Shown here: piece after piece, positions 56,685-63,483 of the stretch
How the letters are laid out: every line of letters starts with the position of its first letter
Position numbering within the stretch: position 1 is the first letter of the stretch
Assembly: GCA_963708185.1 (NCBI GenBank)
Contig: OY970195.1
Location: 32,001-96,000 of the forward strand
DNA: 64,000 nt
Reading direction: 5' to 3'
Origin: Candidatus Peregrinibacteria bacterium
GTDB taxonomy: Bacteria; Patescibacteriota; Gracilibacteria; UBA1369
Position numbers and translations under genes: made by a program
The notes under the pieces: model-generated
What the model saw: the letters and a program-made list of their open reading frames with translations, nothing else
What the model was told of the DNA's origin: nothing
The model's database searches: none

Positions 56685-57158
56685 CTAGAGTTGGCTCGCC
56701 GGAAGCATGTCTTCGGGTTTTGACGGATCGTAGACGACTTCGATCTGTTCACCCACGCGCGGGAACCCTACTCTGGAGACAAAGACGTTGAAGCTTCCGC
56801 GGATTTTTTGTGGAGTTTCCACCGTGAGGCGGATGAGCGGAGCGAGGTTGACCGTTACGCCGGTGTCGCGGACCTCAAGGATGGTGGCCGTGGTTTTCTG
56901 ACCGTTCTTGCGGAGACGCCCCTTGAGACCCAAGTTGGAGAGGCCATGGAAACCCATGCCGATGAGCGGAGCGAAAGCGAAGAGAAAAATGAGGGCCATG
57001 AATCCAAAGAAGTAGTATCCCACTTCAGGCCCGGTTAAATACGTGTCCATAAATGCAGCAACACCGGTGGGGTTGATGGTGGCAAGAATTCCGACGGCGA
57101 TGCCCAGGGCGCCCATGATGATGCCGAACCACATGCCGATTTTGCTCCAGAGATTCAT
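56685..57158 (-). CDS. Two-TM membrane protein with C-terminal OB-like domain (DUF3592-like), paralog 1
   Basis: GRLRKNGQKTTATILEVRDTGVTVNLAP..VSRVGFPRVG..VVYDP. Confidence 0.7.
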   Translation of the reverse strand: MNLWSKIGMWFGIIMGALGIAVGILATINPTGVAAFMDTYLTGPEVGYYFFGFMALIFLFAFAPLIGMGFHGLSNLGLKGRLRKNGQKTTATILEVRDTGVTVNLAPLIRLTVETPQKIRGSFNVFVSRVGFPRVGEQIEVVYDPSKPEDMLPASQL

Positions 57159-57227
57159 AATGTGTGAGGTAAGAAGTAAGGCTCGTTTAGGTTATATTAC
57201 TGGTATTCCTGTTTCCCTTCAATGCTG

Positions 57228-57824
57228 TTACGGTTTCTGCAGATCGGTCACCTGGTCGTTGATGTTTGTGGGGTATACATCCTGTTTGCTGTTGGTCAGA
57301 TCAGTGATCTGACCGTTGATGGGGATGGGGATGGTGTCGATGAACAGGGCCGCTCCGTCAAAATCCATGCTGTCTTTGATGGCGGCATTGACGTCCATGT
57401 ACTCCCGGTCCTGCTGGAAAGGCAACGGTTTCACGGTATATTGGACGGCGAGCGTGAAAGGACTGACCGTTCCTTTGAGCAGTTCCACCGGAACGTCGTA
57501 GAGCCGGTTCTGGACGTGAACCTGCAGAATGGCATTGGGAGGGTTGATGGTCTGGGAGTTGAGCATGTTCACAAAGTCGCCGCTCTTCATTCGGCCGGTC
57601 TGGCGGTACGGCCGGTCGGTAAAGTAGAGCGCTTCCGGTGCGTTTTGCATCGTCAGCGTGTAGGTGCCGTCTGCGGATTTTTGGAGTGACGCGTTCTGGG
57701 CGTCCTGGACGTAGAGTTCGGTTTTGGCATTTGCCCTGGTCAGGAGAATGCCAAACAACACCACGTTGATGACGATGGATGCCACGGCAAGGTACCCCCA
57801 GCGGTTGGGAGTTTGATTTTTCAT
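57228..57824 (-). CDS. Secreted/membrane-anchored hypothetical protein (FTDRP..PPNA motif)
   Basis: N-terminal TM; LYFTDRPYR, NPPNAIL, LFID. Confidence 0.65.
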   Translation of the reverse strand: MKNQTPNRWGYLAVASIVINVVLFGILLTRANAKTELYVQDAQNASLQKSADGTYTLTMQNAPEALYFTDRPYRQTGRMKSGDFVNMLNSQTINPPNAILQVHVQNRLYDVPVELLKGTVSPFTLAVQYTVKPLPFQQDREYMDVNAAIKDSMDFDGAALFIDTIPIPINGQITDLTNSKQDVYPTNINDQVTDLQKP

Positions 57825-58312
57825 GGAAGAAGGGAGTTATGGGATTTTATCTGTTTGGATATGGCTTTTTCCTGTTTCGTCGGGCCGGCCTGGATAAAAA
57901 TGATGATGCCGATGATCAAAAATATCAGTGTTTCAAAAATCTGGATTCCGGTTCCGAGGTAAACGATCCAGGGGTTGTAGATGCGGGCCTGGGGCGGGTT
58001 CGCCGGGTCATAAAATACATCGACTTTATCTCCGGACTGGTACATGGGAGGGGTCGACGTATCTCCCGATTCGAACTCCTGGGTTTGCCCGGCGGCGGTG
58101 GTGAAGTGTACGACCGGTCCGTAGTTTTCGTCCGACGTGCCCTGGAGGTAGGTTTTCATATCGACGACCACGCCCTGGGCGTGCAGGCTGTTTTTCACGA
58201 GAGTGCTGGTGTCCACATACGAGTTCCAGGCGCTCATCGCCGTAAAAAACGCGACGACAAGAAACGATAACCTGATGATCAATCTGATAACGCTGCCAAG
58301 AGAAATCTGCAT
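57821..58312 (-). CDS. DUF3592-like membrane protein
   Basis: AQGVVVD..PVVHFTTAAG..GDKVDVFYDPANPPQARI-TM. Confidence 0.8.
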   Translation of the reverse strand: MQISLGSVIRLIIRLSFLVVAFFTAMSAWNSYVDTSTLVKNSLHAQGVVVDMKTYLQGTSDENYGPVVHFTTAAGQTQEFESGDTSTPPMYQSGDKVDVFYDPANPPQARIYNPWIVYLGTGIQIFETLIFLIIGIIIFIQAGPTKQEKAISKQIKSHNSLLP

Positions 58313-58331
58313 GTGTTATGGAGTCAAAAGG

Positions 58332-58829
58332 TTATTTTTCGAATAGATATGCCGGTCGGATTTCTTTCGGGTTTTCGGGGTTGAAGACGACGTCGACTTT
58401 GTCTCCGGGTCTGGGAAAGCCCACGCGGGAGACGAAGGTGTTGAAGGATCCTTTCACATGGTTGGGGAGTTCAACGGTCATGACCACCATCGGGGCAAGG
58501 TTCACCGTTACACCCGTGTCCTCAATGCTGACGACGGTTGCATCGGTTTTCTGTCCTATTTTCCGCAGGCGTCCCTTGACACCAAAGCCTCGAACGAAAT
58601 CTACGATGAACGGTAAAAGCATCGCGAGTACAACGATACCCATGCCTCCCACAAAGATCCAGAGGATCCAGGTCAGGTCCACATCTCCGTTGAAGAGCGG
58701 GGTGTCGAGCAGTGAAGGGGCAAAGATACCCACCCCGGCGGGGATAAGCACGAACAGAATGATTGAGAGGGCTCCAATAGCGATTCCACCCCACATGGCT
58801 ATCAGCGTCATGAGTCTTCGGAAGGTCAT
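58332..58829 (-). CDS. Two-TM membrane protein, paralog 2
   Basis: GVKGRLRKIGQKTDATVVSIEDTGVTVNLAP. Confidence 0.7.
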   Translation of the reverse strand: MTFRRLMTLIAMWGGIAIGALSIILFVLIPAGVGIFAPSLLDTPLFNGDVDLTWILWIFVGGMGIVVLAMLLPFIVDFVRGFGVKGRLRKIGQKTDATVVSIEDTGVTVNLAPMVVMTVELPNHVKGSFNTFVSRVGFPRPGDKVDVVFNPENPKEIRPAYLFEK

Positions 58830-58867
58830 GGTTGAGGGATTAAAGGTTTGGGGAAAAGAGTAGGACG

Positions 58868-59365
58868 TTATTTTTTGATCTGATACGCCGGGCGGATTTC
58901 GGTGGGTTTGTTCGGGTTGAAGACGACGTCGACCCGGTCGCCCGCCCTTGGGAAGTCCACGCGGGAAACATAGGTTTCAAAAGATCCTTTGATGTGGTTG
59001 GGAAGTTCCACGGTTACGACCACGAGCGGAGCCAGGTTCATCGTTACTCCCGTGTCCTCAACGCTGACCACGGTGGCGGTAGTTTTCTGTCCAATCTTGC
59101 GCAGGCGTCCTTTGACACCGAAGTTCAGAAAGAAGTCTACCAAGAACGGTGAAAGCGAGGCAAAGAAAATGAAGCCCATGCCGCCCATGAAAAACCATAT
59201 GATCCAGTTGATGTCGACTTCTCCTTTGAAAATAGGAGTGTCAAGGACGGAAGGGGCAAAGATGCCCAATGCTCCCGGAATAATGACGAAGAGAATGATT
59301 GCCAGTGCACCAAGGGTGATTCCACCCCACGTCGATATTTTCATCATGAGCTGCCGATAGGTCAT
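58868..59365 (-). CDS. Two-TM membrane protein, paralog 3 (tandem duplicate of 58332-58829)
   Basis: Same length (165 aa) and colinear with paralog 2. Confidence 0.7.
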   Translation of the reverse strand: MTYRQLMMKISTWGGITLGALAIILFVIIPGALGIFAPSVLDTPIFKGEVDINWIIWFFMGGMGFIFFASLSPFLVDFFLNFGVKGRLRKIGQKTTATVVSVEDTGVTMNLAPLVVVTVELPNHIKGSFETYVSRVDFPRAGDRVDVVFNPNKPTEIRPAYQIKK

Positions 59366-59691: not shown

Positions 59692-60456
59692 TTATTTTGA
59701 TCCGCCCATCGCCTTTCTGGCGCCTTCAATGAAGGCGCGGTATTCGTTTTTGCCGTCGGGCCAGTTTTCGTCCGCGCCCCAGGGCGGCAGTTGGTCGGAA
59801 TCCAGGCAGGCTTTTATGTCCATCAGCGTGGGCTCCACCCAGGAATCGTCCCCAACATAGGTGATGATCTCTTCCGTGAACTTGAGTTTCGATCCAAAGC
59901 GCCGCGGGGTTTTTAGGGCGTTGGCAAACACAAAGTACGCGGTGTTACTCACGGTAAAACCGTTGCGGCGGAGCAGCCACTGGTAGACTTCGGCCTGGCG
60001 TTTGTAGCTCTGTTTGTATTTGTCGTCCAGGCTGATCTCCTTAGCGGTGGAGGTGCTCTTGTAATCCACCACGTGGAGTTCGCCGTGCTTGTTGATCCAG
60101 AGGTCGTCCACTGCTCCGAACACCAGAAAATTCGTGGGCTTATGCACAAAGCGCACGCCCTTGAAGTTTTCGCGCCAGTCGTCCATCTGGGGGTTCTGGT
60201 AGGGGACGGCGTTGATGTGGAATTCGGCCATGAGCGGGTGCGGCTCCTTTTTGGCGCGATAGGCGTCGAACTCCTTTTTGAGCAGCGCGTCCACGGCGGA
60301 GTTGAGGCTGAAGCCGGGCATGCCGGGCGGTTTCACACCCAGGCGGCGGTCCAGATAAAAGGTGCGCGGGCAGGTCAAAAAAAGCTCGATCTTGCTGCGT
60401 GAGAGCTTGAAAGGTTCTTTGCTTGCGGGATCGTACAGGTGAGAGGTGCGGGGCAT
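59692..60456 (-). CDS. PD-(D/E)XK nuclease family protein (RecB/Cas4-like)
   Basis: LSRSKI..CPRTFY, GAVDDL, VVDYKST, RQAEVY; ATG at 60456 (MPRTSHL). Confidence 0.85.
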   Translation of the reverse strand: MPRTSHLYDPASKEPFKLSRSKIELFLTCPRTFYLDRRLGVKPPGMPGFSLNSAVDALLKKEFDAYRAKKEPHPLMAEFHINAVPYQNPQMDDWRENFKGVRFVHKPTNFLVFGAVDDLWINKHGELHVVDYKSTSTAKEISLDDKYKQSYKRQAEVYQWLLRRNGFTVSNTAYFVFANALKTPRRFGSKLKFTEEIITYVGDDSWVEPTLMDIKACLDSDQLPPWGADENWPDGKNEYRAFIEGARKAMGGSK

Positions 60457-60489
60457 GGGGGGGTTGAAAAGTTCTTTTATTATAGCACT

Positions 60490-60688
60490 TTTCGTATTTG
60501 TTGTAATAGACCAGGCGTCGGATGCCGCGATAGCTGGAAAGGTCCGGCTCGTAAAGTGCTTCGCCGGAAATTTTTTGGCCGTTTTCCATTTTCGTTGAAA
60601 GAAAGAGCACGTTGAGCGGGAAGATGTTGAGCTCGAACCTGTGCGCCACCGTGAGCCTGTTTGGAATGAAAGCGAAACCGTTGGACAT
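60490..60688 (-). pseudogene. Truncated paralog of the riboswitch-associated 132-aa protein
   Basis: First ~66 aa (FAFIPNRLTVAHRFELNIFPLNVLF..ALYEPDLSSY..YYNKY) align to 63060-63458, then homology stops. Confidence 0.7.
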
Positions 60689-60697
60689 GAGGGTATA

Positions 60698-60782
60698 TTT
60701 ATCAACTCTGGTTGGAGTACCTTGCCGCGCGGCAGGTTGCTGACGGGTCAGGGAGCCAGGGCTCTCGCCGTCTCTTGATAAA
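60698..60782 (-). ncRNA. SAM-I-type riboswitch (P4-less), copy 1
   Basis: Minus strand: TTTATC-AAGAG-ACGG-CGA-GAGC-CCTG-GCTC-CC-TGA-CCCGT-CAGCAACCT..AAGGTACT-CCAA-CCAG..GATAAA. Confidence 0.75.
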
Positions 60783-60792
60783 ATGGGATTCG

Positions 60793-60821
60793 ATTATGCG
60801 GGTGGGTTTTGCTTATTGCAA
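60793..60821 (-). promoter_or_regulatory. Putative sigma70 promoter for riboswitch copy 1
   Basis: TTGCAA-17 nt-CATAAT on the minus strand, about 10 nt before P1. Confidence 0.55.
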
Positions 60822-60841
60822 GAAATTTGTTAATTTTTTGT

Positions 60842-60918
60842 ACATTGAACGTATTTATTACGCTGCCGCCTCTGCTAAAGCTCCCACTAAGCGGCAGCGT
60901 AATAAATACGTTCAATGT
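60842..60918. repeat. Perfect 28-bp inverted repeat with 21-nt spacer
   Basis: ACATTGAACGTATTTATTACGCTGCCGC (60842-60869) / GCGGCAGCGTAATAAATACGTTCAATGT (60891-60918). Confidence 0.95.
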
Positions 60919-61100
60919 TGTCAACCAAGCAATTATTACGAACGCTAGTAGTGTTTTTGATAGTTTGGATTTGTCGGATTTGTTTGACATGGTGAAAATT
61001 CTTACTGAAGACATAGTATCAAAAAAGCGCAGGAGAATCAACAAAAGAGGCCATTGTGGTAAAGGGCGGTGACGATCGACGATGGAAATGTTGGGCTATT

Positions 61101-61478
61101 TTATTTTGATTCGACAAGCTTGATTTTCATTCGATACTCTTTAAGTTTAATTTTGTCAGATACAGGTTTTAAGGCCATTTTTAAAGGTTTTTCGGCCTTG
61201 CCAACAATAATTAGCCCGCGTACTTTTTGTCCTTTCTTTGCAAGATTTTCTTGTACCCATCCCATGTAATTTAGAACTTGTCCCTCTATCCAACCTGTAG
61301 CGTCATCCAATTTTTTTACAGGTTCTTCGAAAGACGCCACATGTTTTCTTGAAATTCCAAATACACGAAAAAATTCATTCCAAAAGGTTTGAGCCTCAGC
61401 TTTTTCACGCTTTGCATCACGCCATTCGCGTGAGAATTCAATAGCTCTTTTTCTGATTTCATTCCAGTTTAAAACCAT
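61101..61478 (-). pseudogene. Chimera of an MmeI-type (Type IIL R-M) N-terminus and a NucS/DUF91-like C-terminus
   Basis: LNWNEIRKRAIEFSREW..EKAEAQTFWNEFFRVFGISR..FEEPV, then GQVLNYMGWV..VRGLIIV. Confidence 0.65.
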
Positions 61479-61596
61479 ATGTATTTTTGGTATTTGTTTT
61501 TTGTTTTATTATCTTATTATTTTACCATAAATTTTGATTTTTGTCTTCAGCTAAAAATGGCTTAGATGAACCTTAAATATTGGTATAATTTGAATT

Positions 61597-62400
61597 TTAA
61601 AAACGGCCTCTCCAGTGAGCACGAGATTTTAGTGTCGCAATATCATTTTTTTCAATTTTTTCTAGATATTGTTCAAATTTTGTAAAATCTACAATATCTA
61701 GTAAAAAATATTCATTATTTTCTTGGCCAGATTTATTTATATAACTATAATTTACCTCTAATTCAAAATCTGAATCATTGATATTTTTAAATTTATCATC
61801 GCCAATATCGATTTTATAAAGTTTACTAAAGTCGCTGCAAAGAATAATAGGATAATAAACATCGTCAATAAAATGATGCTGCAATTTTTTTTGTTCATTC
61901 GAAATAAAACCTTTTTTTCTTAAGTTGATTGTTCCATTTAGCGCTTGATTTAAAGCTCTATAGAAGTCTTCTGATTCGTGAGTTTTTTGTGGATCTTTGC
62001 TCGATGAGAATAATTTTCCTACCCTGGTATCCCAAAAATTATGATGTTTTTCAATCATAACATTACTTGCGTGCTCTTCTAGTCCAGTGTTTCTCATAAT
62101 CATCTGTTCTGCCGAATTTTTGTCTTTTTCGTCAAACCAAAACACGGTTTCATTAGAAATATATTTGCATTCTATAAAAAGCTGTACACGTACGACGCCA
62201 TATTTGCTATCCATCGTAGCCACTCCGAAGTTTTTTTCGGCAATAATGTCGATTTCACGTGGTTTATTTGTTTGATTGTCGCTGTAATAGGGGCTAATCA
62301 ATACTGTCCATCCTTTTTCTCTTAGGAATTGAATAACTTTGGAATGGAACGTGTTGCCACTTTTTTCAATTATCTCCTGAATTGGATCTTTTTTTGCCAT
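61597..62400 (-). CDS. AT-rich PD-(D/E)XK-like nuclease
   Basis: SG.TFHSKV..GWTV.ISPYY.D..KPREIDIIAEK..LFIECK. Confidence 0.7.
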   Translation of the reverse strand: MAKKDPIQEIIEKSGNTFHSKVIQFLREKGWTVLISPYYSDNQTNKPREIDIIAEKNFGVATMDSKYGVVRVQLFIECKYISNETVFWFDEKDKNSAEQMIMRNTGLEEHASNVMIEKHHNFWDTRVGKLFSSSKDPQKTHESEDFYRALNQALNGTINLRKKGFISNEQKKLQHHFIDDVYYPIILCSDFSKLYKIDIGDDKFKNINDSDFELEVNYSYINKSGQENNEYFLLDIVDFTKFEQYLEKIEKNDIATLKSRAHWRGRF

Positions 62401-62412
62401 TAGTAAGTTTTT

Positions 62413-62436
62413 AAAAAGCCGCCATATGGCGGCTTT
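62413..62436 (-). terminator. Intrinsic terminator downstream of the dnaK remnant
   Basis: AAAGCCGCCA-TA-TGGCGGCTTTTT on the minus strand. Confidence 0.75.
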
Positions 62437-62468
62437 ATTGTGATCCTAGTTTTGAACCAGGACAACTC

Positions 62469-62904
<436 letters not shown>

Positions 62905-62914
62905 CGTTGTTCGT

Positions 62915-62942
62915 TTGACTTTTCAGTATCTTCAAGTATCTT
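62915..62942 (+). promoter_or_regulatory. Putative sigma70 promoter for riboswitch copy 2
   Basis: TTGACT-16 nt-TATCTT about 10 nt before P1. Confidence 0.45.
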
Positions 62943-62952
62943 TCTGGTGCTT

Positions 62953-63051
62953 TTTATCAAGAGACGGCGAGAGCCCTGGCTTTGTGACCCGTCAGCAACC
63001 TGCACGCGCGGAAACGCGCGGGGGAAGGTGCTCCAACCAGGATTTGATAAG
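62953..63051 (+). ncRNA. SAM-I-type riboswitch (P4-less), copy 2
   Basis: P1 TTATC/GATAA; AAGAG; P2 ACGG/CCGT with GA/TGA k-turn; loop CCTGG pairs with CCAGG; P3 CAGCAACC/GGTGCT capped by CGCGCG-GAAA-CGCGCG. Confidence 0.85.
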
Positions 63052-63059
63052 AATCTGCC

Positions 63060-63458
63060 ATGGCTACGCCTTTTGCTTTCATTCCAAACAGACTCACCGT
63101 CGCGCACAGGTTTGAGCTGAATGTTTTTCCGCTGAACGTGCTTTTTGCTTCCAAGCGGACGGTACGGGGCAGGGAGGTCTACGTTTCGGCGCTGTATGCG
63201 CCCGATCTTTCGAGCTATTGGACGTGCACGGCTTCGCCCGCGGGCGGGAAACTGCACCGGATGTGGTATTCCAACAAATACGACCGGGACTGGCGGCTGG
63301 AGATCATCTATCACGAGCAGAACCGGAATTACCGGGCCGTAAAGCTGCACCGGGACAAGCGCGTTTTTATGGTTTCCGGCAAGGACTGGCAGTCGTTTTT
63401 TATTTCTCTGACCGGGCGCGGGGTGGAGGAGCGGGAGGGGTGCAGGGAGAGGTTTTAA
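63060..63458 (+). CDS. Uncharacterised 132-aa soluble protein directly downstream of the SAM-I riboswitch
   Basis: ATG 9 nt after the GATAA of P1; followed by a terminator; the paralog at 60688 differs mostly at third codon positions in its 5' part, which supports coding. Confidence 0.8.
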   Translation: MATPFAFIPNRLTVAHRFELNVFPLNVLFASKRTVRGREVYVSALYAPDLSSYWTCTASPAGGKLHRMWYSNKYDRDWRLEIIYHEQNRNYRAVKLHRDKRVFMVSGKDWQSFFISLTGRGVEEREGCRERF

Positions 63459-63483
63459 AAAAGCCGCCCATCGGGCGGCTTTT
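63457..63483. terminator. Bidirectional intrinsic terminator
   Basis: AAAAAAGCCGCCC-ATC-GGGCGGCTTTT between convergent genes. Confidence 0.85.

Follow-up and report, generated by a model that had tools for sequence, protein, structure and literature searches.

We analyzed a 64,000-nucleotide (nt) stretch from a Candidatus Peregrinibacteria bacterium (contig OY970195.1, positions 32,001 to 96,000), which we call the window. Near its 3' end, an S-adenosylmethionine (SAM) riboswitch of class SAM-I, here copy A, directly precedes an open reading frame (ORF) for a 132-amino-acid (aa) protein of an unnamed family, designated X. A promoter-like element, the aptamer, the X gene, and a terminator-like hairpin follow one another on the forward strand (Table 1), and their coordinates bear out the single transcription unit proposed in a first-pass annotation of the sequence; the promoter and terminator are consensus matches only. 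The promoter-like element agrees with the consensus at 9 of 12 positions, and the region holds two such sites against 0.5 expected. A search of sequencing runs for the sequence listed no RNA run and a single DNA run, with a small share. The genome measures 1.44 Mb at 99% completeness, and the reduced genome supposed in that annotation is therefore real.

A scan of the window with the Rfam covariance model of SAM-I (RF00162; gathering cut-off, 44.4 bits) matched copy A over the full model, positions 1 to 108, with a score of 47.5 bits (E = 9.3e-08), as expected for the SAM-I riboswitch proposed in the first-pass annotation. Each aptamer element named in the first-pass annotation could be located, including P1, the junction AUCAAGAG, a kink-turn (k-turn) in P2, the CUGG/CCAG pseudoknot, and the GCAACC/GGUGC core of P3, as could the lack of P4. 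P2 bears the GA/UGA signature of a k-turn, and P3 is a long GC stem capped by a GAAA loop. The score, the P1, P2, and P3 helices, the pseudoknot, and the junction nucleotides of copy A all agree with SAM-I membership, and the P4 helix does not; we regard P4 as absent because 3 nt stand in for the 18 P4 positions of the model. Copy A thus appears to be a genuine element of the ordinary SAM-I class and of a known P4-less kind. The ATG of X begins 6 nt past the final aligned aptamer base, and the distance of 9 nt given previously varies with the base chosen as the last of P1. This 6-nt spacer contains neither a hairpin followed by a T-run, as in a terminator, nor a GGAG-like Shine–Dalgarno (SD) motif.

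The association between SAM aptamers and X recurs in other genomes. Five genomes carry X (the window genome G000, G401, G026, G066, and G273), and all seven of their RF00162 matches lie upstream of X or of an X remnant. In a metagenomic sample of 53 loci encoding X relatives, we counted aptamers that reached the gathering score upstream of the gene and on its strand. SAM-clan aptamers were present at 34 of the 53 loci, comprising 29 SAM-I aptamers and 5 of class SAM-I/IV (RF01725; L012, L014, L015, L016, and L057). When only loci with at least 159 nt of upstream DNA are considered, the count is 34 of 45; eight of the 19 aptamer-less loci have less than 160 nt upstream, and two of the 19 (L030 and L061, the latter cut at its 5' side) contain a sub-threshold SAM-I match. 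The conservation of upstream SAM aptamers among homologues, which the first-pass annotation named as a check, is thus found in both samples. RNAalifold, applied to 34 aligned X-linked SAM-I aptamers, yielded 14 consensus pairs, and compensatory changes occur in 8; only four of the 34 aptamers, the copies from the window and from L007, lack P4. X loci with SAM-I have 30–44% GC and those with SAM-I/IV have 48–55% GC, and the occurrence of two riboswitch classes in low-GC and mid-GC contigs argues that SAM control of X has been selected for. Taken together, these comparisons show X expression to be tied, as far as sequence can tell, to SAM-clan riboswitches across lineages, and it is highly likely that the riboswitch in the window is real and controls X.

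Table 1. Features of the riboswitch locus, with positions in the window
Feature	Position	Strand	Basis
PD-(D/E)XK nuclease gene, 254 aa, ATG at 60456	59692..60456	-	PF12705, E 4.7e-12
X', truncated paralogue of X, ~78 homologous codons	60455..60688	-	protein and profile comparison
SAM-I aptamer copy B, in the opposite orientation to copy A, short P3, P4 absent	60696..60784	-	RF00162
125-aa ORF, matches the MmeI N-terminal domain only (MmeI_N fragment)	61101-61478	-	Pfam
267-aa ORF, weak NERD/XisH/UPF0102-type nuclease matches	61597-62400	-	Pfam
Truncated 3'-part dnaK fragment (HSP70 model 458-509), abuts X promoter	62469-62920	-	profile match
Promoter-like TTGACT-16 nt-TATCTT, ends 8 nt 5' of aptamer	62915..62942	+	consensus only
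SAM-I aptamer copy A, with P1, k-turn P2, pseudoknot, extended P3	62951..63053	+	RF00162
P1 of copy A	62951-62958 pairs with 63046-63053	+	model alignment and sequence
Junction AUCAAGAG of copy A	62956-62963	+	sequence
P2-loop/J3-4 pseudoknot of copy A	CUGG 62976-62979 with CCAG 63037-63040	+	sequence
P3 core of copy A	GCAACC 62995-63000, GGUGC 63027-63031	+	sequence
Spacer UCUGCC, 6 nt, P1 3' strand to AUG	63054..63059	+	sequence
Gene X, 132 aa, unnamed family	63060..63458	+	ORF list, profile match
Terminator-like hairpin (11 pairs, 7 G-C) then T-run, closes unit	63459..63483	+	consensus only

A word-indexed search with X returned three relatives only. A profile built from seven sequences and read against 1.84 billion representatives recovered 277 clusters at E ≤ 1e-3 and 199 at E ≤ 1e-10, and the only source name among 10 of the profile matches was "hypothetical protein". 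X matches no Pfam family at E ≤ 0.1, no NCBIfam family at E ≤ 1, and nothing in PHROGs; its best PADLOC match (E = 0.016) is at noise level, and a profile search of PDB sequences gave a best E of 0.64. The model of X contains no hydrophobic helix, and the protein lacks a signal peptide or transmembrane (TM) segment. These results agree with the earlier statement that the ORF resembles none of MetK, methyltransferases, or transporters and has no TM segment. Within a limited full-text collection, the literature on riboswitches in Patescibacteria or other phyla of the candidate phyla radiation yielded no account of the X family. Among 21 viral-contig pattern matches, none encodes X.

X matches its family profile over its full length and contains the motifs F-I-P-x-R-L, F-P-L-N-V-L-F, A-L-Y-E-P-D, Y-x-N, and W-x-x-F-F. 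Residues P9, L12, F23, P24, Y46, P48, Y70, N72, K95, W110, F113, F114, G121, and E126 are invariant or nearly so, and the family as a whole does not conserve the Cys near the C-terminus. Among identical degenerate codons, X and its L007 homologue differ synonymously at a rate of 0.49 in codons 1–53 and 0.58 downstream. Because these rates are alike, the N-terminus appears to be conserved as protein and not as RNA, and we rejected a constraint at the RNA level on the conserved 5' codons. We conclude that X is, by all indications of its conservation, a real gene of a previously unnamed family.

The AlphaFold model of X (pLDDT 93, pTM 0.86) is an antiparallel meander β-sheet accompanied by two short helices, one close to the N-terminus and one preceding the C-terminal strand. 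Foldseek searches of this model against PDB and BFVD gave nothing at E ≤ 0.001, and a VIA wide structure search had a best Z score of 5.8 (Tp0751), with no relative reaching Z 6. No SAM-lyase, methyltransferase, or other SAM-binding fold stands in the top rows of the Foldseek PDB or VIA wide searches, which is weak evidence. Coat proteins of leviviruses (single-stranded RNA phages) account for 14 of the top 50 VIA rows, with 58–83 meander-sheet residues aligned at a root-mean-square deviation of 2.3–4.2 Å and Z scores of 4.0–5.5; like the X model, this fold has a sheet followed by a C-terminal helix. However, the tool treats Z scores in this range as a common arrangement, the top row (Tp0751) is unrelated, and there is no sequence similarity. 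Judged from the predicted model, the likeness to levivirus coat proteins appears to be a resemblance and not membership, and the modeled fold appears to have no clear relative; we do not claim a new fold. A two-copy complex prediction of X scored 0.02 and gave no verdict either way; a tandem X-X protein, P0028, is the sole hint of X pairing. In addition to this second X domain, fusion partners in the X family include TPR repeats, a conflict-type (polymorphic-toxin-type) DSP phosphatase, and a CpXC zinc ribbon.

The leaders of most X relatives, read from their sequences, contain a CUCUUUCUC...GGAAAGAG hairpin with a U-run behind it, and the 5' half of this hairpin can alternatively pair with GGGAAAGA of P4/P1. 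The antiterminator logic of S-box leaders is well established. Given this logic and the hairpin, U-run, and alternative pairing, SAM likely terminates transcription in these relatives. The window and L007 copies have lost both P4 and the terminator, and their P1 ends 6–7 nt before the AUG. SD-like (GGAG-type) motifs stand at the first ATG of 7 of the 84 crude long ORFs in the window. Because the P1–AUG spacing is short and SD-like motifs are rare, accessibility of the start site is the likely handle for control. When SAM is plentiful, the ligand-bound aptamer would close P1, and the closed helix, 6 nt from the AUG, would probably bar the 30S subunit, giving OFF control at translation initiation; when SAM is scarce, X would be made. 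Translational control of X in the window genome is thus the probable arrangement.

Copy A shares with S-box leaders (RF00162, including the metK leaders of the phylum) the core sequence of the four-way junction, P1 to P3, the k-turn, the pseudoknot, and the predicted OFF logic. Unlike these leaders, it has no P4 and no terminator or antiterminator, its AUG lies 6 nt after P1, and the gene behind it is no known methionine (Met), cysteine (Cys), or SAM gene. Natural SAM-I aptamers with a very short P4 or none are reported to exist in a group of Actinomycetota and to function (PMC12714719); these resemble copy A in being standard RF00162 aptamers apart from the deletion of P4. The window and L007 copies differ from them in belonging to another lineage and in preceding the X family. 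Because natural P4-less aptamers are described there (PMC12714719), the loss of P4 in copy A seems neither novel nor disqualifying.

Class SAM-I/IV (RF01725) belongs to the same clan, has a SAM-I-like core and no canonical P4, and precedes X homologues in the 5 metagenomic loci given above. In its architecture, a 3' hairpin forms a second pseudoknot with the P3 loop. In contrast, clan competition in the window kept RF00162, the P3 loop of copy A is a GAAA tetraloop, and no 3' hairpin for a second pseudoknot was seen. An RF01725 search of the window genome gave no match, and the control genomes were silent too.

A second aptamer, copy B, was missed in the first-pass annotation. It scores 46.1 bits against RF00162, with non-canonical pairs marked, retains 2 nt at the P4 positions, and reads GGUAC where the SAM-I family has GGUGC. 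In a whole-genome scan of the 1.44-Mb single contig, copies A and B were the only RF00162 matches. Compared as inverted repeats within the window, the 5' halves of the two copies are 94% identical over 52 nt and the adjoining coding DNA is 74% identical. The coding DNA behind copy B specifies X', which has 41% identity to X over 114 aa, strongest in the first ~55 residues. X-profile positions 10–78 alone match window positions 60488-60685 (G000:92488-92685), and past the homology the frame runs on, out of register through the next gene, as far as 60140. That next gene encodes a PD-(D/E)XK nuclease, and its ATG at 60456 falls exactly at the end of the X' homology. Since the homology stops after ~78 codons at the nuclease start, copy B and X' constitute a 5' remnant of a riboswitch–X unit, and aptamer B may at present head a transcript that includes the nuclease gene. 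A 56%-identical homologue of this nuclease lies directly 3' of a riboswitch-metK pair in L090:2-355 (G099), the sole case among the loci compared; we treated this link to riboswitch-metK, seen in L090 only, as coincidence.

Copies A and B face outward and flank a low-GC insert and the dnaK fragment. The insert (60800-62450) has 31% GC compared with ~51% for the window, and with its MmeI_N fragment and nuclease-like ORF it looks like foreign, restriction-related DNA. The dnaK fragment, in which the reading frame seems broken according to the ORF list, points to local duplication or rearrangement; an intact dnaK lies ~4 kb past the window end (G000:C1:99088-100899). We regard the riboswitch locus as rearranged and variable. 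Just upstream of aptamer B, at 60842-60918, lies a perfect 28-nt inverted repeat whose arms are 21 nt apart. A related genome likewise contains a duplicated riboswitch and 5' gene stub (L007:2960-3520), in which the first aptamer is followed by just 34 X codons and then unrelated sequence that includes a 122-aa ORF, and the second by an intact X gene. Riboswitch–X junctions therefore seem prone to insertion or rearrangement. Farther from the aptamers, three tandem paralogous genes at 56685-59365(-) encode ~160-aa proteins with hydrophobic N-terminal halves, which, read by eye, are likely membrane proteins; a 300-nt direct repeat, D1 (58331-58630 and 58867-59166; 77% identical), corresponds to two of them. 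Most long ORFs of the window lie on the - strand.

X is rare in the phylum, being present in 4 of 401 sampled genomes with either of two profiles. A sample of 151 genomes of the phylum contains an RF00162 match in 31 and none in 120. Among 29 such loci outside the window, 23 precede metK, two precede X, one precedes an unrelated 117-aa ORF, and three could not be assigned. The 117-aa ORF (L083:1669-2019(+), G130) stands behind a SAM-I aptamer of 46.6 bits and has no Pfam family; we rejected it as an X relative on an hhalign probability of 0.4%, and it appears to be a second orphan SAM-regulated gene in the phylum. The window genome encodes metK elsewhere, without an RF00162 match, which settles the point raised in the first-pass annotation as to its presence. 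In total, metK was found in four of the five X genomes, none of the four having an RF00162 match at metK, and a metK search of X-bearing G026 (0.5 Mb) gave no match. We rejected X as a MetK replacement because metK is present in four of these five genomes. We likewise discarded, as evidence, a pattern in which the riboswitch moved from metK to X, since unregulated metK is the common state (120 of 151 without RF00162).

To describe the neighbors of X, Pfam was run on 150 of 151 flanking ORFs, which fell into 96 families. No Met/SAM gene or recurrent partner is among the 25 commonest of these families, which mix nuclease, restriction-modification, and mobile-type families with housekeeping genes. 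X genes are mostly monocistronic. Between riboswitch and X there is sometimes a small variable gene, often for an ~85-aa "U" domain; U recurs as a partner of X in L036, L038, L040, L044, L048, and L051 and is fused to it in L010 and P0027. U matches no Pfam family, and its model (pLDDT 86) is best matched, at Z ≤ 4.9, by small periplasmic YdgH/BhsA-like and dodecin-like domains; neither result gave a clue to function. LOOT RNA (RF03000) adjoins X genes at L031:1951-2077(+) and L037:24-144(-), with 79 and 67.6 bits, and a sub-threshold match lies at L029:640-749.

On balance, we lean toward the reading that a working P4-less SAM-I switch represses a one-gene unit and that X is an accessory protein of SAM shortage, not a core Met/SAM enzyme. 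X is considered accessory because it is rare (4 of 401 genomes), has no Met/SAM family among its 25 commonest neighbor families, occurs fused to TPR, phosphatase, zinc-ribbon, and second X domains, and does not conserve its Cys. The description of the ORF in the first-pass annotation as a SAM-related protein thus holds at the level of regulation, SAM aptamers being present upstream of relatives, and finds no counterpart among the 25 commonest neighbor families or in the top rows of the fold searches. More tentatively, X may act by binding and not as an enzyme, in which case its partner could be a macromolecule or a small molecule of adenosyl type. The conserved Tyr46, Tyr70, Asn72, and Lys95, placed on one face of the sheet, would make up the surface for such binding.

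Several observations weigh against this reading. The aptamer score is just 3 bits over the cut-off, and the minimum-free-energy structure predicted for 62945-63120 failed to reproduce the aptamer and was no better than shuffles (z = 0.38). Affinity is reported to fall as P4 shortens (PMC12714719). Most relatives have terminator-type leaders, unlike the translational control proposed for the window. The link between SAM aptamers and X is strong yet not universal, as 11 loci with at least 159 nt of upstream DNA have no aptamer at gathering score (L013, L030, L033, L042, L043, L052, L054, L055, L059, L060, and L064), and the 53- and 45-locus counts overstate the number of independent cases because they include near-duplicates (such as L038/L040/L041, L015/L016, and L042/L043). 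SAM binding by the aptamer and partner binding by X are predictions, and the placement of Tyr46, Tyr70, Asn72, and Lys95 on one face derives from strand periodicity in the DSSP string of the model, not from coordinates. The isoelectric point of X is 9.9, whereas the family median is 6.2 with a wide range, and the lack of any fold relative at Z 6 leaves room for an enzymatic role.

A different explanation, in line with the first-pass annotation, is that X is a missing part of the Met/SAM pathway, such as an enzyme, a binder for SAM, S-adenosylhomocysteine, methylthioadenosine, or Met salvage, or an uptake helper, whose induction would refill the SAM pool. The genes under SAM-clan riboswitches are almost always Met, Cys, or SAM genes, and the riboswitch precedes metK in 23 of the 29 phylum loci examined. 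SAM control of X is kept under two riboswitch classes, the conserved Tyr, Asn, Lys, and Glu residues might make up a pocket for a small molecule, and the absence of a metK match in the 0.5-Mb genome G026 would fit a pathway role as well. However, X is too patchy (4 of 401 genomes) to sit easily with such a role, metK occurs alongside it in four of five genomes, and the 25 commonest neighbor families contain no Met/SAM genes. Fusions to TPR, phosphatase, and zinc-ribbon domains are unusual for pathway enzymes, no signal peptide or TM segment suits transport, and the top structure-search rows contain no SAM-lyase, methyltransferase, or SAM-binding fold, though this last point is weak evidence. 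We regard a pathway function as rather unlikely.

Alternatively, the riboswitch could be a sentinel of SAM depletion and X a protein of a conflict system. In one version, X would ease self-restriction when DNA methylation fails for want of SAM; in another, drainage of the pool by a phage SAM-degrading enzyme would turn X on as an effector or sensor. Phage SAM lyases are known to counter SAM-dependent defenses. The settings of X are variable and island-like, with X and X' flanking the 31%-GC insert that carries the MmeI_N fragment and nuclease-like ORF, X' abutting the PD-(D/E)XK nuclease, and a patchy distribution overall. The L007 X gene lies among a KAP NTPase, a small gene pair, a DUF2779 nuclease, and a 122-aa ORF that may be a PIN-type toxin gene. 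Other neighbors include ResIII (2), N6_N4_Mtase (2), Bro-N (2), RE_endonuc, YhcG, PDDEXK_3, SNF2, PIF1, and Cap15, and one fusion is to a polymorphic-toxin-type DSP phosphatase, others being to TPR repeats. These defense-gene neighbors are, however, raw counts, and many neighbors are housekeeping genes (MnmA-type tRNA methyltransferase, SmpB, ComEC, and glycosyltransferases). The PADLOC and PHROGs searches (best E 0.016 and 0 matches, respectively) and the viral contigs (0 of 21) offer no sign of X, which is usually monocistronic and without a cognate partner gene. A conflict role is accordingly rather improbable. It is similarly doubtful that riboswitch and X form a portable alarm module that fires on collapse of the SAM pool, in place of metabolic feedback, with X a new-fold conflict or rescue protein. 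Such a collapse could come from starvation of the host-dependent cell or from a phage SAM-degrading enzyme, and X could then restrain the cell's own restriction nucleases during stalled methylation or bind RNA as a coat-protein-like translational regulator.

Finally, it is very unlikely that the aptamer is a decaying relic that lost SAM sensing with P4 and the terminator, leaving X constitutive in the window genome: the 3-bit margin, the loss of P4 and of the relatives' expression-platform terminator, the rearranged locus (truncated second copy, dnaK fragment, and foreign insert), and the GGUAC core substitution in copy B would suit such decay, but four copies from two genomes retain the same P4-less architecture, sequence identity is higher in the aptamer than in the coding DNA next to it (94% versus 74%), the core nucleotides and pseudoknot of copy A are intact, and natural P4-less SAM-I aptamers are reported as functional (PMC12714719).

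What is new at this locus is the cargo, an unnamed riboswitch-tied protein family without a recognized fold. Its members come mostly from uncultured, host-dependent bacteria whose tiny genomes leave no room for idle genes. Few regulons are as well mapped as those of SAM riboswitches. X keeps a SAM aptamer across many lineages and under two classes and matches no known family or clear fold, and it thus marks an unknown piece of SAM biology. Because the riboswitch reveals the inducing condition, the function of X is experimentally approachable. If SAM collapse is found to trigger X as a rescue or conflict protein, the known uses of riboswitches would widen.

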